Source of the DNA: an uncultured bacterium
GTDB taxonomy: Bacteria > Omnitrophota > Omnitrophia > Omnitrophales > JACQLI01
Direction of reading: 5' to 3'
NCBI GenBank assembly: GCA_964372875.1
Contig: CAYJTB010000001.1
Coordinates: 27,860-91,859, forward strand
Length of the DNA stretch: 64,000 nucleotides
Below, piece by piece: positions 2 to 29,017 of the stretch. Each line of letters opens with the position of its first letter. Positions within the stretch are counted from its first letter, which is position 1. The notes below the pieces were generated by a model that saw only the letters and a list, made by a program, of their open reading frames with translations, was not told the DNA's origin and searched no databases. The position numbers and the translations under genes are program-made.

Positions 2-268
2 TACCGAAGGATTCCCAAACGCGGGTTCAATCAATTTCCCAGAAAAGAATTTGCGGTGATCAATCTTGATCTTCTCGCAACGCTTGGCGAGAGCGAAATT
101 ACGCCCGAAAAATTGGTCGAACGAGGCATTATCAAAAATTTGAAAAAAGATGTGAAGATTCTTGGCAACGGGGATTTAAAAAAGGCCCTTCACGTAAAGG
201 CGCAGCGTTTTTCCGTCCAAGCCAAACAAAAAATTGAAGCGGCCGGCGGCCAGGCGGTGGTGATTTAA
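2..268 (+). CDS. rplO: 50S ribosomal protein L15, C-terminal part (5-prime end outside window)
   Basis: Frame open from window edge; translation YRRIPKRGF...NLDLL...GGQAVVI matches L15 C-terminus; directly followed by secY as in the spc operon. Confidence 0.85.
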
Positions 269-1623
269 TGTTACGAGCCTACGCGAATATTTTTAAAGTC
301 CCTGAGCTTACCCGCAAAGTCCTTTTTACCCTAGCGATCATCGTTGTCTACCGTATCGGGACTTATGTCCCCACCCCGGGAATTGACGGCCATGCCCTTA
401 CCCGGTTTTTTCAGTCGGTCTCCCAAACGCCCGGAGGAACGCTCTTTGGCATTATGGGAATGTTTTCTGGCGGCGCACTTCAAAAAGCCACGATCTTCGC
501 GTTGGGTATTATGCCCTATGTCTCCGCTTCTATTATTCTTCAACTCTTGACCGTCGTTTTTCCTTATTTAGAAAAATTGGCCAAGGAAGGCGAAGAAGGC
601 AGAAAAAAAATCATTCAATACACCCGTTATGGAACGGTGCTGCTTGCGATCATCCAAACTTATTTTATTTCTTTGTGGCTGGAAAATCCTAATGCCTTTC
701 AGGGAACCGTGATTGTACCCAATCCAGGCTGGGGATTCCGGCTGATGACCGTACTTACCTTGACCACCGGCACCGCTTTCATCATGTGGTTAGGCGAGCA
801 GGTGGATCAATATGGAATCGGCAATGGTATGTCCATCATCATCACGGCCGGTATTATTGAATCCATTCCCACCGCGCTTTGGCAGACCTGGGTATTAGTA
901 TCGCCTTTTGACCTTGCCCGGCAGCAGCTGAGTTATTGGAAGCTGGGGCTTTTGATCGGACTTTTTATTTTTACCGTGGTGAGCGTGATTCTTATTATCC
1001 AAGGCGAGAGAAAAATTCCTGTGCAATATGCGAAACAAATTCGGGGAAACCGGGTTTACGGCGGACAATCCACTTATCTTCCTTTGAAAGTGAACCAGGC
1101 CGGAGTGATTCCGATTATCTTTGCCCAGTCCGTGGTGCTTTTTCCGGCCACGATCGCAGGCTTTTTCCCGCACTCCGGAATTTTAAAATCAGCGGCCGGT
1201 CTCCTTGATCCAGGATCCTGGGTTTATACGACAATTTATGCCCTTTTGATTATATTTTTCACGTTCTTTTATACCGCCATTACGTTTAATCCGATTGAAG
1301 TTGCCGATAATCTTCAAAAATTCGGGGGATTCATTCCAGGAATCAGGCCCGGAAAAAATACAGCGGAGTATTTGGATTATGTCATGACCCGGATTGCGGC
1401 AAGCGGTGCGATTTTTCTAGCAGTCATTGCGCTCTTTCCTGAGCTGATTTCGTCGCCCCGGGTTTTGAATGTACCTTTTTTAGTGGCAAGCTTTTTCGGC
1501 GGTACCGGAATGCTTATCATTGTAGGTGTCGTTTTAGACACCATGAAGACGATTGAATCTCAGCTCTTAATGCGTCACTATGAAGGCTTTATTCGAAAAG
1601 GTCGTCTCCGTTCGCGGAGATAA
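268..1623 (+). CDS. secY: preprotein translocase subunit SecY
   Basis: 451 aa, ten-TM pattern, conserved SecY blocks (GIMPY, GTAFIMWLGE, plug region); spc-operon position. Confidence 0.95.
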   Translation: MLRAYANIFKVPELTRKVLFTLAIIVVYRIGTYVPTPGIDGHALTRFFQSVSQTPGGTLFGIMGMFSGGALQKATIFALGIMPYVSASIILQLLTVVFPYLEKLAKEGEEGRKKIIQYTRYGTVLLAIIQTYFISLWLENPNAFQGTVIVPNPGWGFRLMTVLTLTTGTAFIMWLGEQVDQYGIGNGMSIIITAGIIESIPTALWQTWVLVSPFDLARQQLSYWKLGLLIGLFIFTVVSVILIIQGERKIPVQYAKQIRGNRVYGGQSTYLPLKVNQAGVIPIIFAQSVVLFPATIAGFFPHSGILKSAAGLLDPGSWVYTTIYALLIIFFTFFYTAITFNPIEVADNLQKFGGFIPGIRPGKNTAEYLDYVMTRIAASGAIFLAVIALFPELISSPRVLNVPFLVASFFGGTGMLIIVGVVLDTMKTIESQLLMRHYEGFIRKGRLRSRR

Positions 1624-1636
1624 TTAGAACCGGCTG

Positions 1637-2293
1637 ATGCGCTTCGTTCTGTTCGGCCCGCCCGGCGCGGGTAAAGGGACGCACGCTCGAATCATGAGTG
1701 AAAAATGGAAGATCCCTCAGCTCGCAACCGGAGATATTTTGCGCCGGCACATCCGTGAGCAAACGGATTTAGGAAAAAAGGCGAAGGCCATTTTGGACCG
1801 GGGGGAACTGGCCCCAGACACGCTGGTCAATGAATTGATGAAAGACCAGCTGGCAAAACCAGAAGCCGGACACGGATTTATTTTAGATGGCTATCCAAGA
1901 ACGCTCGGCCAAGCGGAAACCTTGGATGATATTTTGAAAAGCCGGAATGAGAAGTTGGACGTTGCGCTTTACTTCAAGACCTCTCCGGAAGTGATCGTGG
2001 ATAGGTTAGCAGGCAGAAGGTCCTGCCCGAAGTGCGGTGCGAATTATCACATTCGCAATATTCGTCCCAAGGTGGAAGGCAAATGCGATGTTTGCGGAGC
2101 GGGTCTCATCCAGCGTTCGGATGACCGTCCTGAAACAGTGCAGCACCGGCTCGAAGTTTATGAAAAAGATACGGCGCCGCTTCTTAATTATTACAGGAAA
2201 AGCGGGCTCTTAAAAGAGATCTCGGGAGATCTGGGTGTCTCCCAGCTGCAAGAGGAACTTTCGAAAGTCCTGGCTAAAAAAGATCGCGGTTGA
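1637..2293 (+). CDS. adk: adenylate kinase (long-lid form with Cys4 zinc site)
   Basis: P-loop GPPGAGKGT, LID segment with CPKCG...CDVCG; follows secY. Confidence 0.95.
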   Translation: MRFVLFGPPGAGKGTHARIMSEKWKIPQLATGDILRRHIREQTDLGKKAKAILDRGELAPDTLVNELMKDQLAKPEAGHGFILDGYPRTLGQAETLDDILKSRNEKLDVALYFKTSPEVIVDRLAGRRSCPKCGANYHIRNIRPKVEGKCDVCGAGLIQRSDDRPETVQHRLEVYEKDTAPLLNYYRKSGLLKEISGDLGVSQLQEELSKVLAKKDRG

Positions 2294-3060
2294 TGATTCG
2301 TCTGAAATCGAAACGAGAAATTGAAATCATGGAAAAGGCGGCAATGATCTTGAGAAAAGTGTTTGAAAAATTGCATCCCGAAGTTCACCCCGGCATGAGT
2401 ACGCTGGAACTGGATGAAATTGCGGAGAAGGCTATTCAAGAGGCGGGCGGTAAATCGGCCTTTAAAGGTTACCGCGGGTTTCCTCGCACCCTTTGCGTTT
2501 CTATTAATGAAGAAGTGGTGCACGGCATCCCGTCAAAAAGCCGGTTGCTCAGAGAGGGCGATTTGGTCAGTTTAGATTTAGGCGTTTTTTATCAAGGTTA
2601 TTATGCTGATGCAGCCCGCAGTCTGGTTCTTGGAAAAGGAACGAGCGAGGCGAACCGGCTTGTACAAGTTGCCCGTGAAGCCTTTCTAGCAGGTTTTGAT
2701 GCGGTACAAGCCCCCGGCAAACGCATGGGCGATCTTTCACAGGCCGTCCAAGCGGTCGTTGAAAAAAATGGCTTCGGCGTCGTCCGCGATTATGTGGGGC
2801 ACGGCATTGGTCAAGCGATTCACGAAGAGCCGTCGGTGCCCAATTATGGAAAAGCCGGTCACGGAATTAAAATTGAGACAGGGCTTGTGATTGCGATCGA
2901 ACCGATGGTGACCGCCGGTCATCATGCGGTGGAAACGCTCCAAGACGGCTGGACGGTCGTGACCAAAGACGGCAAATGGGCAAGTCATTATGAAGATACC
3001 GTAGCTTTCACTGAAAAAGGTTTGGTCAACCTGACAGGCCCGGATGAGAGCTGGAATTAA
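2290..3060 (+). CDS. map: type I methionine aminopeptidase
   Basis: 256 aa, conserved metal ligands (DLG..D, HGIG, EPM); 4-nt overlap with adk. Confidence 0.93.
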   Translation: MMIRLKSKREIEIMEKAAMILRKVFEKLHPEVHPGMSTLELDEIAEKAIQEAGGKSAFKGYRGFPRTLCVSINEEVVHGIPSKSRLLREGDLVSLDLGVFYQGYYADAARSLVLGKGTSEANRLVQVAREAFLAGFDAVQAPGKRMGDLSQAVQAVVEKNGFGVVRDYVGHGIGQAIHEEPSVPNYGKAGHGIKIETGLVIAIEPMVTAGHHAVETLQDGWTVVTKDGKWASHYEDTVAFTEKGLVNLTGPDESWN

Positions 3061-3279
3061 ATGCCCAAAGAAGAAGCTATTGAAGTTGAAGGAACAGTCC
3101 TTGAGCCGCTGCCCAATGCTATGTTTCGTGTGAAGCTCGACAACGGGCATCTGGTTTTAGCGCATATCTCGGGCAAGATGCGCATGCATTACATTCGAAT
3201 ACTTCAAGGCGATAGGGTGAAGATAGAACTTTCTCCTTACGACTTAACACGAGGCCGGATTACCTTTAGGGTGAAATGA
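3061..3279 (+). CDS. infA: translation initiation factor IF-1
   Basis: 72 aa, S1-like OB fold sequence ([20 protein letters not shown]...RITFR). Confidence 0.95.
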
Positions 3280-3280
3280 A

Positions 3281-3394
3281 ATGAAAGTTAGAAGCTCAGT
3301 CAAAAAAATATGTGAGAAGTGCAGGGTCGTACGCCGCCGGGGGACCGTTTATATTATTTGCGAAAACCCCAAACACAAACAGCGGCAAGGATAA
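3281..3394 (+). CDS. rpmJ: 50S ribosomal protein L36
   Basis: 37-aa ORF not in the ORF track ([37 protein letters not shown]) with the C-x2-C-x12-C-x4-H zinc ribbon; canonical position between infA and rpsM. Confidence 0.9.
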
Positions 3395-3413
3395 GGAAGG
3401 ATAAAGAAAAACT

Positions 3414-3803
3414 ATGCCACGTATTCTTGGAGTTGACGTTCCAGCGGAAAAGCGGACCGAAATTGCTTTAACTTATGTTTATGGCATCGGCAATTCACTT
3501 GCGAAGAAAGTACTCGCCTTGGCCAAGATCAATCCCAATAAGCGTGCGAAAGAACTGACGGAAAAAGAAATTTATGAAATCACCAATGTGATCCAGCGCG
3601 CGGGGATTAAGGTCGAAGGCGATGTGCGCCGGGAGACCCAGCAAAACATCCGACGGTTGATTGATATTCGCTCTTACCGGGGCCAGCGCCACATCCGGGG
3701 TTTACCCGCTCGCGGGCAAAGGACTCATACCAATGCGCGGACCCGAAAAGGTCCAAGAAAGACAGTGGGCGGACTGCTTAAAAAGCCACCCGCACCTAAA
3801 TAA
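3414..3803 (+). CDS. rpsM: 30S ribosomal protein S13
   Basis: 129 aa, [10 protein letters not shown]...basic C-terminus; alpha-operon order. Confidence 0.95.
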
Positions 3804-3841
3804 GGTTTCGTTAACGAAAAGGAGAATCATTTTAGAAAGTT

Positions 3842-4216
3842 ATGGCGACCAAGAAAAAGAAAGTTAGAAATATAACCAAAGGCGTGGTTCACATCACAGC
3901 CAGTTTTAACAACACCGTGATTACAGTGACGGATCCCCAAGGCAATGCCATTTGCTGGTCAAGCGCCGGTGCCGCGGGTTTTAAAGGATCTAAAAAGTCG
4001 ACGCCTTTTGCAGCCCAACGGGCTTCTGAGATGGCCGCCAAAAAAGCGATGGAAAACGGTCTAAAGGAAGTTGAAGTTTTTGTGAACGGTCCGGGTTCGG
4101 GACGCGAATCTGCGATCCGGGCTCTGCAAGCCGCGGGGCTCCGGGTAACGGCCATCAAAGATGTGACACCTTTGCCTCACAATGGCTGCCGTCCTCCAAA
4201 GCGGAGGAGAGTCTAA
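3842..4216 (+). CDS. rpsK: 30S ribosomal protein S11
   Basis: 124 aa, [18 protein letters not shown]...[16 protein letters not shown]. Confidence 0.95.
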
Positions 4217-4842
4217 TGGCTAGGATCGTTCAAACCGTTTGCCGTCTCTGCCGCCGCGAAGGGATGAAATTATTCCTTAAAGGCATTCGCTGCACCGGAG
4301 ACAAATGCGCGATTGAAAGAAGAAACCAGCCTCCCGGACAACACGGCAGGCGCCGTCCCAAACTCTCGGATTACGGTCTGCAGCTTCGTGAAAAACAAAA
4401 GACCAAACGTATTTATGGAATGCTCGAAAAACAATTCCGCGTTTTCTTCGCCAGGGCCACGCGCGCGCCGGGCGCCACGGGCGAGAAGCTGATCGAGCTT
4501 CTGGAAAGAAGGCTGGATAATGTAGTCTACAGGCTTCATTGGGCAAGTTCGCGCCGCGAGGCCCGTCAAACGGTGAATCATAATAATATTTTTGTAAACG
4601 GCCGGGCCGTCAACATCGCATCCTTCATCGTCCGTGCCGGAGATAAGATCCAGGTTCGCAGTACAGAAAAAATGAATAAGCGAATCCGGGGGATTCTCGG
4701 GATGCTTCAAGATCGTCCTAGGGTCGAATGGCTGAAACCGGATGCTCAAGATTTGACGGCTGAAGTCTTAAGGCTCCCAACCAAGGCGGACGCAGCACTG
4801 CCGGTTGAAGAGTCGCTTATTGTGGAATTGTATTCAAAGTAA
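4216..4842 (+). CDS. rpsD: 30S ribosomal protein S4
   Basis: 208 aa, N-terminal Cys cluster, S4 domain; overlaps rpsK stop by 1 nt. Confidence 0.95.
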   Translation: MARIVQTVCRLCRREGMKLFLKGIRCTGDKCAIERRNQPPGQHGRRRPKLSDYGLQLREKQKTKRIYGMLEKQFRVFFARATRAPGATGEKLIELLERRLDNVVYRLHWASSRREARQTVNHNNIFVNGRAVNIASFIVRAGDKIQVRSTEKMNKRIRGILGMLQDRPRVEWLKPDAQDLTAEVLRLPTKADAALPVEESLIVELYSK

Positions 4843-4886
4843 AGATAAAGCACCTAACATTGTTAGGATTCTAAGGAGGAAATTCA

Positions 4887-5879
4887 ATGGGGATTCGTTG
4901 GAAAACATTTGAAATGCCGAAGCGGCTTGAGACAGAGAAATCGAGTCTCACGCCCACTTACGGAAAATTTATTGCAGAACCTTTTGAACGGGGTTATGGA
5001 ACAACACTGGGAAACGCCTTGAGGCGGATTTTAATTTCTTCCATTGAAGGGGCCGCGGTTACCTCCATCAAGATTGAAGGAATGCTTCACGAATTTTCCA
5101 GCATGGAAGGCGTGTTGGAAGACGGCGCCCAGCTTGTTCTGAATGTAAAGAAATTGATCCTTCGTTATTACGGGAAGGAACCCAAGAAGATTACAATCGA
5201 TGTGAAAAAGACGGGGGAAATCACCGCACGCGATATCGTGGCGGATGAGACCATCGAGATCATCAACCCCGGCCTTCACATTGCGACCCTTACCAAAGAA
5301 GTCCGTTTCTACATGGAAATGGATGTCGAGCGGGGCCGGGGATATGTCCTTGCCGACCGGAATAAAAAAGAGGGCTCTCCTATCGGTGCGATCCCCGTGG
5401 ATTCTGCTTTTTCACCGGTTTTGAAAGTCAATTTTTCAGTAGAAGAAACCCGCGTCGGACAGATCACGGACTACGACCGGTTGATTCTGGAAATCTGGAC
5501 GAACCTGGCGGTTAGTCCTGAAGAAGCGCTTCTCTATGCCTCCAATATCATGCAGCGGCACCTTGACATTTTTGTCAATTACGGCAACCTGCCGCACGAA
5601 GAGGAGGAAGAGGAGGAAGAGGACAAGGAATTTCTGGATATGATCCGCAAGCCCATCAGCGAGCTTGAGTTGTCTGTGCGCAGTGCCAATTGTCTTGAGG
5701 CCGCAAACATTAAGACGATCGGGGATCTTATTCAAAAGGCTGAACCTCAAATGCTCAAGTATAAAAATTTCGGGAAAAAATCTTTAGCGGAAATTACCGC
5801 CATTCTCACGACGATGAATCTTTCGCTCGGAATGAGTATCGAAGAACGGAAGAAAAAGAAAAAAGCCGTAACAGCCTAG
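4887..5879 (+). CDS. rpoA: DNA-directed RNA polymerase subunit alpha (NTD-CTD linker is a poly-Glu tract EEEEEEEEDKE)
   Basis: 330 aa; alpha-NTD dimerisation motifs and alpha-CTD (SVRSANCL...IGDL); RBS AAGGAGG upstream. Confidence 0.95.
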   Translation: MGIRWKTFEMPKRLETEKSSLTPTYGKFIAEPFERGYGTTLGNALRRILISSIEGAAVTSIKIEGMLHEFSSMEGVLEDGAQLVLNVKKLILRYYGKEPKKITIDVKKTGEITARDIVADETIEIINPGLHIATLTKEVRFYMEMDVERGRGYVLADRNKKEGSPIGAIPVDSAFSPVLKVNFSVEETRVGQITDYDRLILEIWTNLAVSPEEALLYASNIMQRHLDIFVNYGNLPHEEEEEEEEDKEFLDMIRKPISELELSVRSANCLEAANIKTIGDLIQKAEPQMLKYKNFGKKSLAEITAILTTMNLSLGMSIEERKKKKKAVTA

Positions 5880-5888
5880 GAAAATTTC

Positions 5889-6485
5889 ATGTGGCATCAA
5901 AAAAGACGTAGACGATTAGGAGTCACCACTCCTCACCGCAAGGCAATGTTAAGAAATTTGGTCAGGGGTCTGGCCATGTACCGCCGGATCGAAACCACTT
6001 TGTCCCGCGCCAAGGAGACGTCGCGTTTAGCTGATAAGATGGTCACGATTGCCAAAGAAAACACGTTATCGGCCCGAAGACTCTTGATCCGCAAACTCGG
6101 ATCTCCCGTCGTCGCCAAGATTTTTATCGATGAAATCGCCCCGCGTCTTCAAGGGCGAAACGGCGGTTACACGCGCGTTTTAAAATTGGGTCTTCGCCGG
6201 GGTGACGGCGGCCAGACCGCTTTGGTGGAGTTTTCTGTTCCCATCGAGATCGCCACCAAAGAAGGAAAGCCCAAGAAAGAGAAAAAGTCAAAGCCCGGCA
6301 AAGAAATTGTCGAGAAAGAACAGGCTAAGCCGCGTCCTGAAAAAACGAAAGAAAAAGAAGAAATCAAGGAAGCGAAAAAGCCTGAGAAAAAAGAGACGAA
6401 GCCTGTTGACAAGGAAGAAACACAAAAAAGGGGAGGCTTTCTCTCCAAACTCCGGAAATTTCTGACCGGAGACGAACCTAAATAA
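5889..6485 (+). CDS. rplQ: 50S ribosomal protein L17 with ~75-aa Lys/Glu-rich C-terminal extension
   Basis: N-terminal ~120 aa typical L17 (HRKAMLRNL...TRVLKLG.RRGDG); tail KPKKEKKSKPGKE...KKETKPVDKEE is a low-complexity basic/acidic extension. Confidence 0.9.
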   Translation: MWHQKRRRRLGVTTPHRKAMLRNLVRGLAMYRRIETTLSRAKETSRLADKMVTIAKENTLSARRLLIRKLGSPVVAKIFIDEIAPRLQGRNGGYTRVLKLGLRRGDGGQTALVEFSVPIEIATKEGKPKKEKKSKPGKEIVEKEQAKPRPEKTKEKEEIKEAKKPEKKETKPVDKEETQKRGGFLSKLRKFLTGDEPK

Positions 6486-6521
6486 CCGAGGGCCTTGTTG
6501 ATCCCTCTTCTCGCAGAACCC

Positions 6522-7688
6522 ATGCTGTCCAAACGAATTAGCAAGGTCACGCCGTCTCTTACCCTTTCCATCACGGCTAAAGCCAAGGCCCTCAAGGCGC
6601 AAGGCATCAATGTCATCTCTTTAAGTGCCGGTGAACCTGATTTTGATACCCCTGAATTTATTAAAGAGGCCGCGATTGAAGCACTCAAAAAAGGCGTCAC
6701 AAAATATACGCCTGTGGAAGGCACGCTTGAACTTCGAAAAGCCATTGCCTCCAAACTGAAACGCGATCAGGGTCTTACGTACGGTCCGGACCAAATCGTG
6801 GTCTCAACCGGGGCTAAACACTCCATTTATAATCTCTTCCAAGTCCTCGTCGGTGAGGGTGACGAAGTTCTCATCCCATCGCCTTATTGGCTTAGTTACC
6901 CAGAGATGGTGACTTTGGCGGGCGGGCGCAGCGTTTTTATTGAGGCGGATGAAAAAAACGACTTCAAAATCACCGCCCAGCAGCTGGAAAAGGCCATCAC
7001 TCCTAAGACAAAAATCTTAGTCCTTAATTCACCGTCGAACCCCACGGGCGCGGTTTACCGGAAAAATGAATTGGAAGCCCTGATCCTCGTCCTTTTGAAA
7101 CATCCCCAGGTTTGGATTTTAAGCGACGAGATTTATGAAAAATTAATTTTTAATAACGAGGCCCATGTTTCCATTGCCTCGCTTCATCCCGAGATGGCGA
7201 AGCGGACATTGCTTGTGAATGGTCACAGCAAGGCCTATGCAATGACCGGGTGGAGAATGGGGTATGCCGCCTGCGCTAAAGAAGTTGCCGAGGCTGCGGG
7301 AACACTTCAAAGTCACTCCACTTCCAATGCTACTTCTTTCGCCCAGTCAGGGGCGGTCGTCGCTTTAGACAAAGGGGATGCAGAGGCAAAAAAAATGTGT
7401 CAGGTTTTTGAAAAAAGGCGGGACCTTTTTGTTTCGGAATTAAAAAAGATTCCCAAGCTCAAACCCTTTTCTCCACAAGGCGCTTTTTATCTTTTCGTAA
7501 ATATCGAAGCCACGGGCATGGATTCCATGGTTTTTTCGGAACGCCTTTTAGAAGAGGAGCGGGTGGCTGTCGTTCCCGGAAAAGTTTTCGGCAGTGACCG
7601 CCACATCCGTTTATCTTTTGCCTGCTCCGAAAAGGATATCTTGGAAGCGTCTTCCCGAATCCGTCAATGGCTTGAAAAAAAGGGCTGA
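6522..7688 (+). CDS. aspartate/aromatic aminotransferase (class I PLP aminotransferase)
   Basis: MLSKRISKVTPS...GEPDFDTP, NSPSNPTG, PLP lysine context SKAYAMTGWRMGY; ORF track starts at 6495 (alternative upstream Met), 6522 fits the family N-terminus better. Confidence 0.85.
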   Translation: MLSKRISKVTPSLTLSITAKAKALKAQGINVISLSAGEPDFDTPEFIKEAAIEALKKGVTKYTPVEGTLELRKAIASKLKRDQGLTYGPDQIVVSTGAKHSIYNLFQVLVGEGDEVLIPSPYWLSYPEMVTLAGGRSVFIEADEKNDFKITAQQLEKAITPKTKILVLNSPSNPTGAVYRKNELEALILVLLKHPQVWILSDEIYEKLIFNNEAHVSIASLHPEMAKRTLLVNGHSKAYAMTGWRMGYAACAKEVAEAAGTLQSHSTSNATSFAQSGAVVALDKGDAEAKKMCQVFEKRRDLFVSELKKIPKLKPFSPQGAFYLFVNIEATGMDSMVFSERLLEEERVAVVPGKVFGSDRHIRLSFACSEKDILEASSRIRQWLEKKG

Positions 7689-7721
7689 ATAGCCCCTTTC
7701 CCCGGTCCCTCATCCTTCACC

Positions 7722-7727
7722 TGTTAT
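7722..7727 (+). promoter_or_regulatory. TATAAT -10-like hexamer upstream of mfd-like gene
   Basis: ttcacctgTTATAATct 20 nt before the GTG start; no good -35. Confidence 0.25.
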
Positions 7728-7746
7728 AATCTTCTAGAGATTTACC

Positions 7747-9654
7747 GTGGGCGGGCTTGAAAGGCTTCATGTTGGCCAGACTGTTGAACGAAGCCATTTG
7801 GAGACCCTCCTCCAGAAACTTCGTTACAAGAGGAGAGATTTTGTGTCCGGACCCGGTGAATATGCCGACCGCGGCGCCACTCTCGATATCTATCCTGTAA
7901 GTTACCGCGCTCCCATTCGTCTTAATTTCGATCTCGATACCATCGTTTCGATCCACGATTTTTCTCCCGCCGAAGGCAAGAGCCTCACCCGCTTTGACGA
8001 GGTCCTTCTCGTCCCGCTCTCGGAGCCTTTTGAATCTTCAGCCACCCGGATGCGGCAGCGTTTTCAGGCCTTCGAAGCCCTTACGGAGACGGCCGATCTC
8101 GAGCCGGGCGATTATGTGGTCCATCTCCAGTACGGCATCGCGCGCTACCTCGGAACGAAGAAGATGACGCTGAAGAAAAAGGCGGTCCGCTGCGTTGCCT
8201 TGGAGTTTGCAGATCGTGAAATCCTTTATTTGGATTCCAAAGAACCCTTGGAGCGCTACATCGGGGTTGAAGGAAAAAAACCCCGGCTTACCCGGCTTCA
8301 CTCGAAAGAATGGGAAAAAGCCAAGGCCAAGACACGGCTTGCCGTAGAAAGCGTTGCGCGAGACCTCCTTTCTCTTCAAGCGAAGCGCGAACTCTCCCAC
8401 GGCCAAACCTTTCCTAAAGACAGTGAATGGCAGAGTAAATTCGAAGAAGAGTTTCCTTTTGAAGAAACGGAAGATCAAATCAAGGCCACGGAAGACATCA
8501 AAAAAGATATGGAAGGTGCCAAGCCGATGGATCGTCTTCTTTGCGGCGATGTGGGCTTCGGAAAAACAGAAGTTGCCATGCGCGCCGCCTTCAAGGCCGT
8601 GATGGCCGGAAAACAAGTGGCCTTTTTAGTCCCCACCACGGTGCTTGCCGAGCAGCACGCCCTTGTTTTTAAAGAACGCACCCGGACTTTTCCCATCAAA
8701 ATCGAAGTCCTCTCCCGTTTTCGTTCCCGAAAAAACCAAACCGAGATATTAAAGCAACTCTGGGAAGGAAAAGTGGACGTGATCATCGGCACGCACCGGC
8801 TTTTTTCCTCCGATGTCCAGTTTAAGGACCTAGGTCTTGTCATCATTGATGAAGAACAGCGTTTCGGCGTGGCCCACAAGGAAAAATTAAAAAAGTTAAG
8901 AGAATTGGTGGATGTGCTGACCTTAACGGCAACGCCCATTCCACGCACGCTTTATCTTTCGCTGATGGGGGCGAGGGACATGTCGGTCATTAATACCCCG
9001 CCTCGCACACGACTTCCCATTGAAACTTATGTGATGGAATATGATGATCACAAAATTGCAGAGGCCATCCGCCGGGAGCTGGCGCGGGGCGGCCAAGTGT
9101 ATTTTGTCCACAACCGCGTGGCTTCTCTCCCCAGAGTTTGCGAGCATTTAAAAACCATTCTGCCGAGTGTGCGGTTTGCCGGCGCGCACGGCCAGATGTT
9201 TGCCCACGAACTGGAAAAGGTCATGAAAAATTTTCTCGAGAAAAAAATTGATTGTCTCGTCACCACCAACATTATTGAATCAGGTCTTGATATCCCTAAT
9301 GCCAATACGATCATTGTGAACCGCGCTGACCGGTTTGGTCTTGCGGATCTTTATCAGCTGCGCGGACGGGTAGGGCGGTTTGTGGGTAAGCGGCAGGCTT
9401 ACGCGTATTTTATTATTCCTCGCCATTGGGTCATGACCTTGGATGCCCAAAAAAGATTAGAGGCAATTGAGCGGTTCACGGAACTTGGAGCAGGATTCAA
9501 AATCGCCATGAAAGACCTCGAAATTCGCGGGGCAGGTAATGTTCTGGGCCATGAACAAAGCGGATTTATCTATGCGGTGGGTTTTGACCTGTATTGCCGC
9601 ATGCTCCGCAAGGCCGTGGATGAACTCAAGAACTCTCCCAAAAAGAAGCCGTGA
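7747..9654 (+). CDS. mfd: Mfd-like transcription-repair coupling factor core (lacks N-terminal UvrA-interaction domains and C-terminal D7)
   Basis: [14 protein letters not shown] (D1b-like), RNAP-interaction motif [18 protein letters not shown]2 helicase motifs [42 protein letters not shown]-like hairpin; GTG start, in-frame TAG 12 nt upstream so no longer N-terminus possible; ends 10 aa after the last helicase block. Confidence 0.8.
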
Positions 9655-9657
9655 ACA

Positions 9658-10662
9658 TTGAAATCACAAGCATCTACTGGTTATAATGCTCCCATGTTGC
9701 GTCGTCTTGTCCTTACCCTAGGTTTTCTTATTTTAGGCACCCTTCCTGCCTGGGCCCAGAAGCAGCTTGTCGATCGGGTGGCCGCTGTTATCAACGACGA
9801 AGCCATTACCCAAAGCGAGCTAGAGATGTATCTGCGTCCCATTTATGAAGGCCTGAAACAGCAATTTGAAGGCGAAGAATTAATGAACCGCTTGAATGAG
9901 ACCCGGCTTAAACTTCTAAATCAAATGATCGAAGACCGTCTTGTTTTTCAAAAAGCCAAGGCCATGGAACTCAAAGCGGAGGACAGTGAGATTGAAGAAG
10001 AAGTGGATAGGCTCAAAAAGCGCTACCCTTCTGAGGAGGCCTTGGAAAAAGAAATGACGAGTCAGGGTTACAGCATGTCAGGGCTTCGGGAAAATATACG
10101 CCGGCAAATCCTCATTCGTAAACTTCAAGACATCGAAGTAAAGTCCCGCGTTATCGTCTCACCCCGCGAGATTGAAGAATATTACAAGTCGCATATCGGT
10201 GAATTCGAACAAGAATTAAGAATGAAGCTGCTTTCCATCACCATTCGTAAAAGTAAAGAGGCCGAGGAAAAAGGACTTGTGGATGAAGCGGCGAAGAAAA
10301 AAATCGAATCCGTTGAATTCCGGATCCGGAGTGGCGAAGACTTTGAGGATTTGGCCCGTCAATTCTCTGAAGATGCCCATGCAGCCGAGGGCGGCCAAGT
10401 CGGCTGGGTCCGTAAAGGCGAATTTCTTCCCTCCATCGAAAAAGCCCTTCACGAATTAAACCAAGGAGCGATTTCCCCAGTGCTGGAAACCGCGGCGGGT
10501 TACCATCTTTTTAGGGTGGAGGAAAAAGATCCCGGGAAGGTGAGTTCGTTGGAGGAAGTACGGGAGAAAATTCGTTCGGTCCTATTCCGCGAAAAGGCTG
10601 AAAAGCGTTTCAAGGAGTGGATGGAAGAATTAAAGACCCAAGCCTACATCTCGGTCCGGTGA
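9658..10662 (+). CDS. SurA-like periplasmic chaperone / parvulin-type peptidyl-prolyl isomerase
   Basis: Signal peptide (MLRRLVLTLGFLILGTLPAWAQ, probable start at 9694), SurA N-domain-like helical region, PpiC domain GGQVGWVRKGEF...GYHLFRVEEK; upstream of pdxA as in the surA-pdxA-rsmA cluster. Confidence 0.8.
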   Translation: MKSQASTGYNAPMLRRLVLTLGFLILGTLPAWAQKQLVDRVAAVINDEAITQSELEMYLRPIYEGLKQQFEGEELMNRLNETRLKLLNQMIEDRLVFQKAKAMELKAEDSEIEEEVDRLKKRYPSEEALEKEMTSQGYSMSGLRENIRRQILIRKLQDIEVKSRVIVSPREIEEYYKSHIGEFEQELRMKLLSITIRKSKEAEEKGLVDEAAKKKIESVEFRIRSGEDFEDLARQFSEDAHAAEGGQVGWVRKGEFLPSIEKALHELNQGAISPVLETAAGYHLFRVEEKDPGKVSSLEEVREKIRSVLFREKAEKRFKEWMEELKTQAYISVR

Positions 10663-10671
10663 CGCCTGGCC

Positions 10672-11721
10672 GTGTTGCAAAAACCCATCATTGCGATCAC
10701 ACAGGGCGATCCCGGCGGGGTCGGTCCCGAAATCATCGCAAAGTCCCTCCAGCATCCTGAAAATTTTTCCGGCGTTTTTCTTCTTCTGATCGGCACCGCC
10801 GTGGTTTTTGAATTTGTCCAAGAAGAATTTGGCATCAAACTCCCTTTAAATCCCATCCCGACCTTGGATCCCCAATTTTTAAGAGACGATTCGCTTAATT
10901 TTTTGGATGTGACGGAAGAAGCGGGATGGCTTTTAAAAAAACACTCCCTGCCCCAGCCCGATGAAAATAATCTTTTTGATATCGGCAAAGTGTCTGCGAC
11001 TAACGCAGCCATGGCCTTGGCGGCCTTGAAGGCCGGGGCGTACCAGGCAGCCACGGGTCTTGTCAATGGACTTGTCACAGCACCTGTGAATAAAGAAGCC
11101 ATTCGACTTCTCGAGCCCAAATTTGTGGGGCATACGGAATATCTGGCCAGAATCGCCCGCACCAAAGAATTCGCCATGATGTTTCTCAAAGCTAAGGACG
11201 AGAGTTCGGGACCTTTGCGGGTGACACTCGTGACCATTCATGTCCCTTTAAAAAAAGTTTCCCGGCTCGTCACTGAAGATGCCATTTTAGAAAAAATCCG
11301 TCTCACACATCAGTTCTTAAAAACCCGCCTTAAAATCGCCAAGCCCCGAATCGGTGTTTCGGCTTTAAATCCGCACGGTCATGAGACGGGGGACGAAGAG
11401 GAAAGAGTGATTTTTCCGGCCATCAAAAAGGCCCAAGAGGAAAATATCTTGGCAAAGGGTCCGGTTTCAGGCGACCGGATTTTTTACGATGCCTCCAAGG
11501 GAATTTATGATGCGGTTATCTCGATGTATCACGACCAGGCGCTGGCGCCCTTTAAATTGGCGGCCTTTGAAACAGGTGTGAATTTAACGCTGGGGCTTCC
11601 CTATGTGCGCACATCGCCTGACCACGGAACCGCCTTTGATATTGCCTACCAGGGAAATGCCAATCCCAAATCCATACAAGCGGCTCTCGCGTTGGCAATT
11701 CAGCTTGTGAAGGTTCGCTGA
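10672..11721 (+). CDS. pdxA: 4-hydroxythreonine-4-phosphate dehydrogenase PdxA
   Basis: ITQGDPGGVGPEI, HGHETGDEE, metal-binding His residues, SPDHGTAFDIA. Confidence 0.9.
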   Translation: MLQKPIIAITQGDPGGVGPEIIAKSLQHPENFSGVFLLLIGTAVVFEFVQEEFGIKLPLNPIPTLDPQFLRDDSLNFLDVTEEAGWLLKKHSLPQPDENNLFDIGKVSATNAAMALAALKAGAYQAATGLVNGLVTAPVNKEAIRLLEPKFVGHTEYLARIARTKEFAMMFLKAKDESSGPLRVTLVTIHVPLKKVSRLVTEDAILEKIRLTHQFLKTRLKIAKPRIGVSALNPHGHETGDEEERVIFPAIKKAQEENILAKGPVSGDRIFYDASKGIYDAVISMYHDQALAPFKLAAFETGVNLTLGLPYVRTSPDHGTAFDIAYQGNANPKSIQAALALAIQLVKVR

Positions 11722-11884: not shown

Positions 11885-13594
11885 TTAGTAAACCCGGGCG
11901 GCCCTTCTCTTTTTATTCTTTCCGCCTTTAGGCGCGACAAAAAATTCCATGTATTGGCCGAGGGCCAGGCGTGTCTGTGCATCGAGCGCAGGGACAGCAC
12001 CGAAGATGGTGGCAATGGCCGGGACAAGAAGCCATTGAAGAGCCAAGAAAATCTTTTCATAGAAGGGGACTTTCTTGGGGCGTTTGGGCAGGAGATAAAA
12101 ACTCAGGATAATCGAAATCACAAGGCTTGCGATAGCCATGTTGCAGATGACACCTGCCACCCGAGGCGCATTAAAGTGGGCGACGGTCAAATTGAATTCG
12201 TAATTGGGAACAAGGGCAGGCGCCCAGCTTAAGATCATCATGATGGGGGTCCAGGTGGCCCACGAGACATTCATCTCAAGAAGACGCAGCGCTCGTTTAA
12301 ATTTAAGCCAAAACGGGATCTCCTGATGCTTCAGCATGCCCCTCACGAGAATAGGAAAATTTTCGACCCCCCATGCCCAGCGTCTTTTTTGCCGGTAAAT
12401 GGATTGGCAGGTTTTCCACAAGTTCTCACCGATTGCCACATCCATCGACAACGTAACATAAAGAGGCTCCACCCGGTAATCGCCGTTAAAAATAAGAAAG
12501 GCCTTCCAGAAAATGGCAGAATCATCGGAAACCAGATCCACCGGCCAGTAACCTACTTCGACAAGCGCCTGAAAGCTCATGCTATGGCTTGAAAAGGTAA
12601 CCAAGTGGTCCGGGTCAGTGACTTCGATCAGCTGAAAATAAGAAGACCCTGTTTCTAACACTTGGGCAAAAGAGGGGGCCTCCCAGAGATTGTTATGATA
12701 AACGGGGATGGGCTGAAAACTGGTCCGGGTCCGTTTGGGATGAATCAAATAATTATAGGTGAGGCAAGAAAAATATTCGGTACTTACGACCGTATCCGAG
12801 TCAAAACAGGAAACCACAATGTGATCGAGCGGAGTCCCGCGCGCCTCGAAAAATTTCTTGGCCCAACGCGCGGCATACGTGGCGTTGGCGCCTTTGACCG
12901 CCGCCTCTCCTGGGAGCCCATCGGGATGAATACAGTTTTCAAAGTGGAGGAAATCTTTCGCGTATTCTTCTTTTAAGACCTCCGCAATACGGACCGCCTC
13001 TTTTCCTCCGCGTTCCTCAATCGCAAGGACCACCACGATGTGGTTTTTGGGATAATTCGTTTGTCTTAAAGCCTCAAGCGTGGGTTCTAAGACACTCAGA
13101 CCTTCCCAGAGATAGGGAATAATCACGAGATGATAGATATCTTTTGGATTGGGAAAATGGATTTTATCATGTTGGAGGCGTTTCAAAGTTGCGAGATGCC
13201 TTTTTTCTGAAAAATGAATTTTCCAACCAAGCTTGGGATCGCGAATCCTTTTTTGTGTCCTCGTTATGGCGCTCTCTAAATGGAGAAAATCTTGCAGCCG
13301 GTCAAACCATTGAGCGGTTCGTTCAATTTCAAGAAGCACATAAGAGAGCACCAAAAAAATGGTGAAATAAACCAGCCGGAAAAGCCAGTAGAGATCGAAA
13401 AGAATAACCGTCACAACCCCGGCGACCGGGGCCAAGATACATACGAGTGTAAAGGAAATAAGAAGACTCCAGCTAAGCACGGCGGGGAGGATTTCCAGGC
13501 CACGCTCCAACCGCCCTTCGTTTTTACCCAGATTGTGGCGGGAATATTCAAATTTCATGGAGAATCCTTGGAGGCCGCGGAGGCGGAAACCCAA
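11885..13594 (-). CDS. membrane-bound processive family-2 glycosyltransferase (cellulose/glucan synthase-like)
   Basis: N-terminal TM helices, D...DxD (CFDSDT)...SDD and Q(R/Q)xRW motif (YRQKRRWAWG), C-terminal TM bundle. Confidence 0.8.
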   Translation of the reverse strand: MGFRLRGLQGFSMKFEYSRHNLGKNEGRLERGLEILPAVLSWSLLISFTLVCILAPVAGVVTVILFDLYWLFRLVYFTIFLVLSYVLLEIERTAQWFDRLQDFLHLESAITRTQKRIRDPKLGWKIHFSEKRHLATLKRLQHDKIHFPNPKDIYHLVIIPYLWEGLSVLEPTLEALRQTNYPKNHIVVVLAIEERGGKEAVRIAEVLKEEYAKDFLHFENCIHPDGLPGEAAVKGANATYAARWAKKFFEARGTPLDHIVVSCFDSDTVVSTEYFSCLTYNYLIHPKRTRTSFQPIPVYHNNLWEAPSFAQVLETGSSYFQLIEVTDPDHLVTFSSHSMSFQALVEVGYWPVDLVSDDSAIFWKAFLIFNGDYRVEPLYVTLSMDVAIGENLWKTCQSIYRQKRRWAWGVENFPILVRGMLKHQEIPFWLKFKRALRLLEMNVSWATWTPIMMILSWAPALVPNYEFNLTVAHFNAPRVAGVICNMAIASLVISIILSFYLLPKRPKKVPFYEKIFLALQWLLVPAIATIFGAVPALDAQTRLALGQYMEFFVAPKGGKNKKRRAARVY

Positions 13595-15036
13595 TCATCT
13601 ACCAACCGGGGAAGAATATTTGCCGGCTCGAAAAGCTGGATCCGTGACAATCGGCGGGTAAGGGGATCCGCAAAATAAACAAACCCCCGTCTTTCATCCA
13701 AAGCAATTTGAGGGACTCTTTTTGAAATTTGGAAGAGAGGAACCGCTTGGCCATTGCCTTCAAAATCCAACACCTTTACCCAGCCGCCTTCTACAAATAA
13801 AAGATAATTGTCATTGTAAAACCAAGTGAGATTAGAAATTTTTTGCTCTCCCTGATAAATTTTTCGGGGGGAAACGCCGGTTTGGAAAAATTCTTTTTCC
13901 GGTTCACGCTCAAAATCGACCAGCCAAAGTTCAGAATCTTTCCGGTAGACAGCCCGCCTGTTGAAAACGGCCGTGACCACTTCCTCCACTCTCTTGTCCA
14001 GGTAATAGGGAAGCCGGTTGGAAAAAAGCTTGCCTTGATCCGACAAGAAAAGAGCAAACGCCTCATGAAGCGGAGTGAAGATAAAAGGCCGGGAGAGAAA
14101 ATAGAAGGAATAGCGTTCCCCCTCGTCAGGACCGAAAATAAGGTGCGCCTTGGCGGCCGTGCCCAATAACGTTTTCCGGATTTCCCCTTTTTCAGTTAAT
14201 TCGAATAAACGTCTTCGGGCATCCATCACAAAAAGTTTGCGTCTGTCCGTGGTATAGCCCCGAATCCCGCCCTGCACATCAAAGAGAGGAAACCGTTCTT
14301 CAAAATCCATTTTTTTGAGGGTATCGCCTTGAAGATAAAAGAGTGCATTTTTTTGAGAGGGGCCCCAACGAAACTTATCGAAGGGTTCCTGGAGACTTCC
14401 AGCAAGCGGAGTCAGTTCCATGGGACTCAGGAATTTCACAAGAAAAGGACGAATGCCTTCTTTTTGTTTCATGAAGGCCACGGCCTTTTCGCCTAAGGGA
14501 TGCATCAGGACTTCTCCCACTGGGAAATCATATTCGCCTGAAAAATTGGGGAAAATAGGCTCGAGTTGATTTCGCTCAGGTTCAAAAAGATAGAGCCCGG
14601 AGACGTGATCGCCTTGAAGGACTACAAGTTTTCTTGTCTGTGCAGCGTGCCAGATTTTTGTGATGGGAAAATCCGTGAGCTTCTCCGAATCAAACTGAGT
14701 GGGGAAGAGCAAAATATTTTCAAAAGAAAGGACCTTATCGGCTTTGACCTCCACTTGTTTTTGCCAAGGATGCATTCCCGGCAGGCTCAAGTGAAGGTTA
14801 TAAAAACCGGATTTAAGATTACGAATGACGACAGGGGTGGTGTCTTTCAAGACCCGGTGATTGAGCTCAACCTGGGCTTGGGAGGGGTGTGAATTAAGGC
14901 TGATCAGGCCGGTGAGGAGAAGCTTGGAATGGCTGGGGCTGAAAATATAGCCCAAGGCATAGAGCACGGTCAAAGGTGCTATCACAAGGTAGGCTACGGT
15001 AAAAACCAAGAAGATTGCTTTACGTAAAATTCCCAT
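13555..15036 (-). CDS. hypothetical N-terminally membrane-anchored protein, upstream partner of the GT2 synthase (40-nt overlap)
   Basis: 493 aa; single N-terminal TM (FLVFTVAYLVIAPLTVLYALGYIF) then large extracytoplasmic domain; operon with GT2; no recognisable family by eye. Confidence 0.5.
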   Translation of the reverse strand: MGILRKAIFLVFTVAYLVIAPLTVLYALGYIFSPSHSKLLLTGLISLNSHPSQAQVELNHRVLKDTTPVVIRNLKSGFYNLHLSLPGMHPWQKQVEVKADKVLSFENILLFPTQFDSEKLTDFPITKIWHAAQTRKLVVLQGDHVSGLYLFEPERNQLEPIFPNFSGEYDFPVGEVLMHPLGEKAVAFMKQKEGIRPFLVKFLSPMELTPLAGSLQEPFDKFRWGPSQKNALFYLQGDTLKKMDFEERFPLFDVQGGIRGYTTDRRKLFVMDARRRLFELTEKGEIRKTLLGTAAKAHLIFGPDEGERYSFYFLSRPFIFTPLHEAFALFLSDQGKLFSNRLPYYLDKRVEEVVTAVFNRRAVYRKDSELWLVDFEREPEKEFFQTGVSPRKIYQGEQKISNLTWFYNDNYLLFVEGGWVKVLDFEGNGQAVPLFQISKRVPQIALDERRGFVYFADPLTRRLSRIQLFEPANILPRLVDDWVSASAASKDSP

Positions 15037-15315: not shown

Positions 15316-18300
15316 ATGACCCTACGCGCGAAAAATTTTTATCTACGCACTGTCGCAGCTTTCACCGCAATCATTTTTTGCTGGAATAGCCTTGCTTGGC
15401 CGCTTCCCGAGGTTGCGGTTCCCCAGGCCGGCAAAACTTTCGATCTCATTCCAAAAGAACTCGGAACCGTCGATGAATACGAACTGCCGGACGCTTCACA
15501 TTCCGCACCCTTTGTCATACATATTCAAGATCTCCACGCAGCACCCGAAGCTCAAGAAAAAATCCTGGACATTCTTAAATTTTTACATTCAAAAAAGAAA
15601 CTTCTCGTAGCGGTCGAAGGAGCCGCCGGAACGCTTCATCCTGAGTATTTAGATTTCTTTCCGCAATACCCGCGTGTCACAAACGCACTCGTTCAAGATT
15701 TGGTAAGTGAGAGCATGCTTACAGGGCCGGCGTTATTCGCATGGGAGAGGTATGAGAGTAAGCCGTCATTGCACCCGTCATTGCGAGGACGTAAGTCCGA
15801 AGCAATCTCAAATCCTAGATTGCTTCGTCGGGCCTTTGGCCCTCCTCACAATGACAATAGCGTCCAATTCATAGGCGTCGAGACGCCGCGTCTTTATCGC
15901 GAAAACCTTAAAGCCTATCGCGATTTTTTCCAGGATGAAGAAAAAAATCAGCAGGATTTGAAATCTTTCCAAACCTCATTGGAATCGGCCCAAACGAAGA
16001 TTTTCAATCCTGATTTGAGGAAATTTGTCCAAGAAGTCCAGAGACGTAAAGATGGAAAGTTTCAATCGGGAAAGGCCTCGCCCGATCTTGCGGCTTACAT
16101 TCGCTTTCTCGCGGATTCAAGCCGAGATCATTTGGGAGTTGATCTAAGAGATAAATTCGAACAGATCCGTTTTCCCAATCTAACCCGCATTCTTTTCTTG
16201 ATGGAATTCGAATCAAAAATCACTGCTCACCAGCGCCGGGTTCTGCATTCTGAAATTGAATCCAAAAAACTTTTTGATGAAATCACACTTCTCGAAACAA
16301 GACTGCGGCAAATACTGGTTAAAAAGCCGGAAGAAACAAAACTTCTTGAGATCCTTGATGATTTCAAGTTGCTTGAGAAGTTATTCCATTTGGAACTGAC
16401 TCGCGAGGAATATTACCAAGTCGTCAACAGGGTTTTGGAAATCAATCCGTCGAATTTACATCAGCGTTTGGCAACCATTGCTGAGATTGCTTCGACCTCG
16501 TCTGAAATGTTGTCTCGCAATGACGCCGATTACGAAACTGCTCTGCGTTTTTACCGCTTAGCCATTCGCAGAGACAAAGCCCTTCTTGAAAATGCCTTGC
16601 GAGAGGCAGCTAAAACGGAGAACTCGTCTCAAGAAAAACCACTCATCGTTCTTGTTACCGGCGGTTTTCACACTTCAGGGGTGAGCGAGCTTCTCAAAGA
16701 AAAGAAAATTCCTTACGCCGTCGTCACGCCTGCCTTAGCAAAAACCAAAGCCAATCAAGACCAATATCACAAACTGATGTCCGGCAAAATGTTCGCCAAA
16801 GAAGCCTCAAGCGCTTCGCCCAAGAATAACAATCTGGTGTGGGCGCAGATTCTTACAGCAAGAGATCGGTACCCGAGCCTCAATTCCGACGAGGATCAGC
16901 AAAAAATATTTTCCCACGCGACTGAAAAGTCCGGCGAGTATTTTCGAAAATTCTATCCCCAAATCTCCGAACCCAAACTGCAAGAACTTTTATCTCGCCC
17001 CGCCGGATTCTTTTCGCAAATCTCCCGTTCCGAATTGCAAAGTAGGAGCCAGATTACGAATTCGGCCATCGATGGCCGAATTGGCGGGAAAAGGGTACTG
17101 CCTTCACGTTTTCCGCGCTCGGAAGTGCGGGCGGTAGAACAGCGATTAGAAGTCAGTGGTCAGAAGACAGAAGGCTGGAGTTCAAAGATAGGAAAAATTA
17201 TCAGGAATGGCAGCGATTTTGGACTATCGAGGGTTTTCCAGCGTAGTCAGGCGAAGAATTATCGAATTCCAAGCCGCTTAGAAAAATCTCGAGGTGAAAG
17301 AATAGAAATCTCTTTAAAGGTTTTCATCGATAGCAGATCGTGGTCTCCTGTGACAATGATCGTTGCTTTAGCTGAAAGAGCGCATTCCAGCACGGCATCA
17401 TCGTCCGGGTCACGGCAGGCCTTTACCTTTGTTTTAGGTTTGACTATCAAAGCTTTCATATGGATCAATGAAATCATTTCTTCAAGCATTTCAGGCGTGA
17501 TCCATTTCTTGAGTTTAGGTTTTTCCAGTGAGCGAAGAAAGTCTTCCAGTAAGGCCGGAGATAAAGCCGCAATGAACTTGTCTTCTTCCAGGGATTCCAG
17601 AATCGAACGGCAAACGCCCGGAAAGGCGAGTCCGCTCACCAGCACATTCACATCAAGAACGACCCGACGCATACCGTTCCTGCCGGGCTTGCTTGACCAG
17701 ATTCAGAAGCTCTTTTCGGCTGAGAGGGTGTTTCTTTCGGCTTTTATCAACTTTGCGGGTCAGAGAACGGAAGCGTTCTCCCCAGGTCTTATGTTCAAGA
17801 CGACGGATCAGGGTAATGCGGTCACGGGATTTCAATTGATTGATCATGCGCTCAATTTGTTGAATGTCTACTTCCACGGCAATCTTAGGCATAGGATTTT
17901 ATCCTCCTCTTCGAATCAGTATAATTTATCGGCCTTGGCGGATCAAAATCAAAACATTTCTTCCGTTAAGCCTTCTAAGCAAAGTTCGACAGAACCGAGC
18001 CGAAGGGCCGCTTCCGGCCCCGAGAGCCGTCAGTCTCCGATCCTAAGCGTCGATAGACCCGGAGGGGCCCGTGGGGAGGTGCGGGCAAAAGAACAGAGGT
18101 CAGAAGTCAGAGAGCAGAGGATAGAGGTCATAAGTCAGAGATCAGAAGGAAAAATTACTTCGAGTGGCGGCGATTTTGGTAGCGTTCGATCAGGTACATC
18201 ACGCCCCAGGCAAGAAATATCAAAACCAAAACAAGAGACACGGTTATCACGTTTTATTTACCCCTTTTCCGAATCTCTTGGGCAAGCCATCCAAGAAATA

Positions 18301-28807: not shown

Positions 28808-29017
28808 ATGACACGAGTGACAGTTTCCCCAAAATATCAAATCGTGATCCCTAAAGAAATTAGGGAAAAGTTGGATATTCGGTGCGGACAGAAGATGGCC
28901 GTCGTAACAAGAGGGGAATGGATTATGCTGGTTCCCGATCTGCCTTTGAAACATTATCGGGGGTTTTTGAAAGGTGTGAGTTCAGAGGGGGTTCGTGACC
29001 GAAGGGACCGGTTTTGA
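28808..29017 (+). CDS. vapB: AbrB/MazE-fold antitoxin (VapB-like)
   Basis: 69 aa, MTRVTVSPKYQIVIPKEIREKLDIRCGQKMAVV swapped-hairpin motif; 4-nt overlap with downstream PIN gene. Confidence 0.75.
   Translation: MTRVTVSPKYQIVIPKEIREKLDIRCGQKMAVVTRGEWIMLVPDLPLKHYRGFLKGVSSEGVRDRRDRF

Follow-up and report, generated by a model that had tools for sequence, protein, structure and literature searches.

Mfd is the bacterial protein that frees damaged DNA of stalled RNA polymerase. Work on it concerns both its role in coupling transcription to repair and its promise as an 'evolvability' drug target. Its regulation is usually ascribed to a clamp between domains D2 and D7. In the E. coli protein, D2 comprises residues 129-217. 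Derepressed derivatives of E. coli Mfd have been engineered, and work by Smith in 2007 is reportedly among the studies of them.

The triple mutant R165A/R181A/F185A of E. coli Mfd has lost UvrA binding (Manelyte et al., 2010; PMC3025350). Two of these residues, R165 and R181, lie within the D2:D7 interface, and deletion of either D7 or the UvrB-homology module (BHM; D1a/D2/D1b) derepresses the motor (PMC3025350). For repair coupling in vitro the BHM is required, whereas D7 is not (PMC3025350). A second study also found that loss of D7 derepresses Mfd (PMC3488230). Kang et al. (2021) and the 2026 follow-up treat the masking of D2 by D7 as protection against recruiting UvrA too early, and the repositioning of D1-D3 as part of loading; D3 itself is described there as non-conserved. 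In E. coli models, the productive placement of UvrA2B depends on the position of a rigid D1-D3 module (PMC13365950).

Several natural Mfds depart from this scheme. Those of Buchnera, Wigglesworthia and chloroplasts are without the BHM and without UvrABC, but they keep D7 and the hook-relay interface (Smith et al., 2012; PMC3488230). The same authors pointed out that even such atypical Mfds keep D7, and they judged a permanently activated Mfd to be unlikely in cells (PMC3488230). The Mfd of Thermus has all domains and is constitutively derepressed, with an open, dynamic clamp; Brugger et al. (2026; PMC13453472) argued from it that autoinhibition is not universal, and described D7 and the hook as more conserved than the N-terminus. 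The literature that we searched contained no account of a naturally short or D7-less Mfd, none of an Mfd in which D2 alone is kept, and nothing specific on Mfd or NER in Omnitrophota. The source data of Seymour et al. (2023; PMC10066038) list uvrA, uvrB and uvrC (K03701, K03702 and K03703) and mfd (K03723) once each for Omnitrophota genomes 58 and 231; these are two genomes other than the one studied here, and their mfd may be of the short or of the full-length form.

We analysed a stretch of 64,000 nucleotides from an uncultured Omnitrophota bacterium (the window). The open reading frame at 7747..9654 on the forward strand encodes an Mfd of half the usual size. It begins at a GTG, ends at a TGA (9652-9654) and encodes 635 aa. 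This protein scored 858.7 bits with the NCBIfam mfd equivalog model TIGR00580 (TIGR00580.2; cutoff 800), and a search against solved structures matched it to those of E. coli Mfd with E = 1e-168. With the full-length model PRK10689 it scored 630 bits, which is below the cutoff of 1329. RecG was also considered as an identity and was rejected: the best RecG model gave 412 bits, where its cutoff is 718, and its match was confined to the motor.

The boundaries of the gene are well defined. A TAG stop codon (7735..7737, forward strand) lies in frame 12 nt 5' of the start codon and closes the reading frame, and thus an N-terminal extension is impossible. The upstream gene, a class I/II aminotransferase, runs to 7688, and the SurA-like gene on the other side begins at 9658. 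With its neighbours so close, mfd could have no further domains hidden by a frameshift on either side. An earlier note on this DNA had described the same 635-aa frame, with its GTG start and upstream stop, and had raised the chance that a sequencing error masks an upstream extension; the frame is as it said, and the extension is absent.

That note had proposed alignment to E. coli Mfd as a check. In a structure search, the compact protein aligned in two stretches, corresponding to D2 and D4-D6: residues 9-101 to E. coli residues 132-225, and residues 112-629 to residues 471-988. BLASTP against the Mfd of MG1655 agreed with this structure-based map (35% identity for D2; 51% for D4-D6 over 513 residues). 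Pfam found UvrB_inter (aa 7-92), CarD_TRCF_RID (aa 118-162), DEAD (aa 242-401) and Helicase_C (aa 439-545). Additionally, we built domain profiles from 149 full-length Mfds; those for D2, D4, D5 and D6 matched the compact protein with E = 1e-20 to 1e-121. The order of parts in the compact Mfd is therefore D2, a linker, D4 (the RNA polymerase-interacting domain, RID) and the D5/D6 translocase, with the C-terminus at about E. coli residue 990.

D2, the UvrB-like UvrA-interaction domain, occupies aa 7-92 (7765..8022, forward strand, as are all parts of the gene). It matches PF17757 with E = 7.5e-18 and aligns to E. coli residues 133-226. The D2 profile matched with E = 1.6e-20 and covered positions 9-93 of 94. 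In the structure 4DFC, D2 by itself was co-crystallised with UvrA, and its isolated D2 chain (4dfc_A) aligns to residues 8-90 of the compact Mfd. The earlier note had read this N-terminus, including a 14-residue stretch that it quoted, as D1b/D3. That assignment was wrong, as the N-terminus is a complete D2 and the quoted stretch is its core.

A linker of ~20 aa (aa 93-115; 8023..8091) joins D2 to the RID, where a canonical Mfd has D1b, D3 and a D3-RID linker. It contains a predicted helix (aa 93-108) and a low-confidence stretch (aa 98-111). Outside the separate D2 match, full-length relatives align to the compact Mfd from residue about 93-117 onward. The RID follows at aa 116-188 (8092..8310), with a D4 profile match of E = 1.3e-20 and a PF02559 (CarD_TRCF_RID) score of 37.5 bits against a cutoff of 23. 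D5, or translocase domain 1 with the relay helix, spans aa 190-422 (8314..9012; D5 profile E = 2e-121; Pfam DEAD). W189, the equivalent of E. coli W550, lies at its edge, and within it are the Walker A motif GDVGFGKT (aa 267-274; nt 8545-8568) and the DEEQ motif (aa 368-371; nt 8848-8859). D6, or translocase domain 2, spans aa 424-632 (9016..9642; D6 profile E = 8.5e-102) and contains motif VI, the TRG motif and the hook helices, with the TRG region at about aa 570-606 (nt 9454-9564). The last three codons (aa 633-635) and the stop codon, at 9643..9654, mark the site where a canonical Mfd would continue into D7; a variable tail spans aa 626-635.

The predicted structure is in keeping with this map. 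An AF2 model built from a mixed alignment of 70 sequences reached a pLDDT of 84.8 and a pTM of 0.70; it superseded an earlier run on 31 close homologues, with a pLDDT of 65.8. D2 was modelled at pLDDT 82-96 (block means, residues 1-70 and 81-90), and residues 98-111 were below 50. The closest PDB folds to the model were apo-Mfd structures, with a query-normalised TM of 0.73 to 6ac8. In the model, D2 looks like an independent domain that sits on a flexible tether beside the RID.

The residues on which the motor depends are conserved. The Walker A lysine (E. coli K634) corresponds to K273, D729/E730/E731 to D368/E369/E370, and R902/R905 of motif VI to R541/R544. The TRG residues R929, R953 and Q963 correspond to R570, R594 and Q604, and the hook-relay pair W550 and I970 corresponds to W189 and V611, with W189 invariant. 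The catalytic, TRG and hook-relay positions are all invariant or nearly so across the short family. In the RID, the position of E. coli L499 is M140 and is an isoleucine in most of the short family. The RNA polymerase-interacting region and the translocase motifs, both of which the earlier note had reported as retained, are indeed present, and every helicase and TRG residue that we checked is conserved.

The D2 surface displays a mixture of conservation and change. Two of the three tested UvrA-contact residues are kept: R42 (E. coli R165) and R58 (E. coli R181) are both invariant in the short family, as are G166, D170, P179, F184 and F195 (E. coli numbering). The third member of the contact triple, F185, is replaced by E/D in the subgroup to which the window protein belongs, and is still Phe in the divergent subgroup of the related locus L002. 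The position of Q200, 99% conserved in the 149 full-length Mfds, is Gly in 98% of short forms; that of G149 is R/H in short forms, unlike in the full-length set. The R193 position is Arg in about 73% of short forms and His in the window protein. Tyr53-Arg54 is newly invariant in the short-form D2. Lineage-specific changes of the D2 surface were seen at aa 53-54, 62 and 77. Such changes in D2 could be due to the loss of D7 contacts or to co-evolution with UvrA.

D2 and the motor are under equal purifying selection. In a comparison with a relative of 92% amino-acid identity, the gene as a whole had a dN/dS of 0.044, and D2 had one of 0.051. Pairwise identity by region was 57% for D2, 67% for the RID, 75% for D5 and 74% for D6. 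The linker, at 46%, was the least conserved internal region, and the C-terminal tail (626-635) was at 26%.

Based on these data, we propose that the gene probably encodes a functional, clamp-less Omnitrophota Mfd coupling factor, of a compact form (D2, flexible linker, RID and D5/D6) that is shared across the lineage. To judge from the domain assignments, the three modules with assigned activities, for UvrA binding, RNA polymerase binding and DNA translocation, are retained, and the scaffold and regulatory modules have been dropped. In our model, the RID would dock onto stalled RNA polymerase at its beta-protrusion. The motor, which is RecG-like and carries a TRG motif, would then grip the upstream duplex DNA and translocate at the expense of ATP, so that the polymerase would be pushed forward and the transcription bubble would collapse. 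Without D7 there would be no D2:D7 clamp, and both the motor and the D2 surface would be unmasked; the protein would behave like Thermus Mfd, which is derepressed by nature, and like E. coli Mfd from which D7 has been deleted. Residual control may be exerted through the retained coupling of the RID, the relay helix and the hook helix (W189 and V611, the counterparts of W550 and I970). Finally, D2, tethered ~20 residues from the RID, would bring UvrA, in the form of UvrA2B, to the lesion once this has been cleared. A functional coupling factor without the clamp is the most economical explanation, in which D2 has been retained because UvrA has been retained. With D7 gone, UvrA is the only known partner left for the R165/R181 arginines.

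The coupling step of this model may be questioned. The remodelled D2 surface might bind UvrA differently, or might bind another partner. By analogy with E. coli, a lone tethered D2 may not reproduce the geometry with which UvrA2B is placed. As the main rival reading, the protein could be a remover of RNA polymerase, which displaces or restarts the stalled enzyme and modulates transcription but takes no part in NER coupling, and which keeps D2 for folding, for DNA contact or for some other partner. The replacement of the F185 and Q200 equivalents and the new invariant residues in D2 would fit such a role, as would the absence of D1a/D1b, the domains to which D2 is rigidly joined in the E. coli protein; BHM-less Mfds that are unable to couple to UvrA do occur naturally (PMC3488230). 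However, in the known uncoupled cases D2 was lost together with uvrABC, and here it is kept. As D2 is retained, with a dN/dS of 0.05 (0.051 for the domain) and invariant R165 and R181, in a phylum that has been reported to carry uvrABC, we consider it unlikely that the compact Mfd acts in this way. The suggestion in the earlier note, that such a core could dislodge RNA polymerase without coupling to UvrA, is thus the less likely reading.

D1a, D1b, D3 and D7 are absent from the compact mfd gene. The 635-aa protein had no match to PF03461 and none to the D7 profile. The statement that this Mfd lacks the autoinhibitory C-terminal domain was therefore correct; the alignment to the E. coli protein goes no further than residue 990. 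The companion statement, that it lacks the UvrA-recruiting N-terminus, was only partly so: D1a, D1b and D3 are missing, but D2, the domain that binds UvrA, is kept. It is conceivable that the missing domains are encoded by separate genes elsewhere and assemble with the compact protein in trans to restore the clamp. The genomic DNA that we searched comprises the 64 kb of the window and stretches of 8.4-22 kb from seven relatives, which leaves some room for such a split Mfd. In the six-frame translation of the window, the D1a, D1b, D3 and D7 profiles gave no match at E <= 10, and the same was true of the seven related loci.

We asked the same of a control set, the 80 Mfd loci listed in a scan of GTDB species representatives, which were mostly full-length Mfds of Bacillota, Spirochaetota and Chloroflexota. 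Among the loci listed, 78 belonged to other phyla, and the D7 profile matched every one of these 78. The D1a profile found all 74 of them that were not cut by a contig end; the D3 profile likewise found all uncut loci in that list. The D1b profile was less sensitive (44 of the 74 uncut loci among the matches listed). The order D2-D4-D5-D6 was displayed only by the Omnitrophota-type loci L002 and L003 among the 80 control loci listed. When D7 of the nearest full-length relative (from NPL-UPA2) was used as the query for stand-alone D7 proteins, a word-indexed search gave a single match, which speaks neither for nor against a split Mfd.

The neighbourhood of the gene also bears on a split. BLASTP and profile searches around mfd found no adjacent gene for an N-terminal domain, as the earlier note had stated. 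Downstream of mfd are genes for a SurA-like PPIase (9658-10662) and pdxA (10672-11721), both on the forward strand and both identified by Pfam; the order mfd, surA-like, pdxA is the same in the related loci L082-L086 and in L002. The upstream neighbour, in contrast to this, varies among relatives: it may be the aminotransferase gene, an AAA_14 gene on the opposite strand, or argS. This variability rules out a split-off N-terminal gene beside mfd. In addition, PF03461 was found in none of the 240 short clusters listed, the mfd KO was counted once in each of the two tabulated Omnitrophota genomes, and we found no precedent for a split Mfd in the literature searched. By comparison, in the control loci listed neither the D7 nor the D1a profile missed an uncut Mfd from another phylum. 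Nothing that we saw supports assembly in trans, and we regard it as very improbable.

The compact architecture is conserved. Two cluster searches, with the window protein and the L002 protein (52% identical) as queries and 120 matches listed for each, gave at least 240 protein clusters with the same four domains. Their lengths were 626-683 aa, apart from two that were slightly shorter (599-683 aa overall), and none of the 240 compact clusters listed had PF03461. The start and end positions are common to the homologues of 626-683 aa. The clusters come from NCBI, JGI, ENA and Logan assemblies, some of them on contigs of 0.3-1.6 Mb. Among the clusters listed, nearly all of those with names are from Candidatus Omnitrophica / Omnitrophota; one is from a Verrucomicrobiae bacterium and one from a 'bacterium'. 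In a library of 1.84 billion representatives (50% identity clusters), two of the best 150 matches were short, and those at ranks 3-150 were full-length proteins of 1024-1337 aa that align in two stretches. The closest full-length relative among these 150 is from candidate division NPL-UPA2.

The idea that the gene is degenerate, or that an assembly or sequencing artefact has cut a normal mfd, draws on its half-usual length and GTG start, but we dismiss it as having next to no chance of being right, because the same boundaries recur in 240 independent clusters from different assembly sources, the neighbours are tightly packed, dN/dS is 0.044 and the catalytic residues are intact. A pseudogene or frameshift was rejected on the open frame, the in-frame stop and dN/dS. 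The degenerate gene offered by the earlier note as its alternative is likewise excluded by the 240 clusters and by dN/dS.

One of the control loci deserves separate mention. The contig of L003 is titled 'uncultured Planctomycetia bacterium', yet it carries an Omnitrophota-type short mfd (5887-7791; 634 aa) that is 56% identical to that of L002, and its argS (4121-5803)-mfd order is as in the Omnitrophota contig L002. Either this is a mislabelled bin, or the short form reaches beyond Omnitrophota.

The wider surroundings of mfd in the window are also shared with relatives. Between pdxA and a giant ORF are two ORFs on the reverse strand, one with Glyco_trans_2_3 (11885-13594) and one with a PEGA domain (13555-15036). 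The giant ORF (15316-28719, forward strand) encodes 4467 aa, in which Pfam found nothing but a WD40 beta-propeller (about aa 1064-1376). In L082-L086, the whole block of mfd, surA-like, pdxA, Glyco_trans_2_3, PEGA and giant ORF is kept. Longer giant ORFs are found at the same syntenic position in relatives; for instance, that of L082 starts from 17318 and has a called product of 8492 aa. A PIN-domain ORF (29014-29391, forward strand) lies about 300 nt 3' of the giant ORF. On its other side, mfd lies just 3' of a ribosomal cluster on the forward strand (268-6485), with genes for ribosomal proteins and with secY, adk, map, rpsM, rpsK, rpsD, rpoA and rplQ. It may be co-transcribed with these highly expressed genes.

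If the compact Mfd is a coupling factor, it is possible, and we suggest it tentatively, that in Omnitrophota transcription-coupled repair relies on a minimal factor, made up of D2, the RID and the motor, that is never clamped. In E. coli, the choreography of D1-D3 and D7 is thought to time loading, to hide the UvrA site and to wrap DNA. Were our suggestion true, this choreography would be dispensable across a whole phylum, and paused and stalled polymerases would have to be told apart in some other way, for example by the hook-relay switch or by occlusion of D2 by DNA or RNA polymerase. Low copy number and the remodelled D2 surface (G77, Y53-R54) are other candidate controls. A phylum-wide Mfd with D2 but without D7 would be a natural experiment on the need for autoinhibition and on the retention of D7. 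The compact Mfd may also define the minimal functional coupling factor; at 635 aa it would be easier to use in structural work and reconstitution, and it offers a prediction of how catalysis and regulation are divided among the modules. Annotation pipelines call these compact proteins ordinary Mfd, and therefore the loss of domains is invisible in databases.

How the compact Mfd stands in relation to known systems may be stated as follows. With RecG it shares a homologous SF2 motor with a TRG motif; it is without the RecG wedge domain, and RecG itself is without the RID and D2. Canonical E. coli Mfd (1148 aa; PDB 2EYQ and 6X26) has in common with it D2, the RID, motifs I-VI, TRG and the relay and hook residues. 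The compact form, however, is 635 aa compared with about 1024-1337 aa for full-length Mfds, and it lacks D1a, D1b, D3 and D7; hence it has no D2:D7 clamp and no rigid D1-D3 module.

The E. coli delta-D7 mutant is likewise without D7 and has an unmasked D2. Its ATPase and translocation are derepressed, it displaces RNA polymerase, it binds UvrA, and it supports repair coupling in vitro (PMC3025350; PMC3488230). Such engineered derivatives keep D1a, D1b and D3, whereas the Omnitrophota form is natural and evolutionarily stable and is also without those domains. The Mfd of Thermus thermophilus (978 aa; PDB 6M6A and 13JQ) aligns to residues 93-633 of the compact Mfd with E = 1.6e-151. It still encodes the BHM and D7, and its derepression is conformational and not due to domain loss.

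Finally, the BHM-less Mfds of Buchnera, Wigglesworthia and Arabidopsis chloroplasts are, like the compact Mfd, natural proteins with a reduced N-terminus in which the RID, the motor and the hook-relay are kept (PMC3488230; PMC13453472). They have lost the whole BHM, D2 included, have kept D7 and have no UvrABC. The compact Mfd is the opposite case: D2 is kept and D7 is lost, in a phylum that is reported to have uvrABC.
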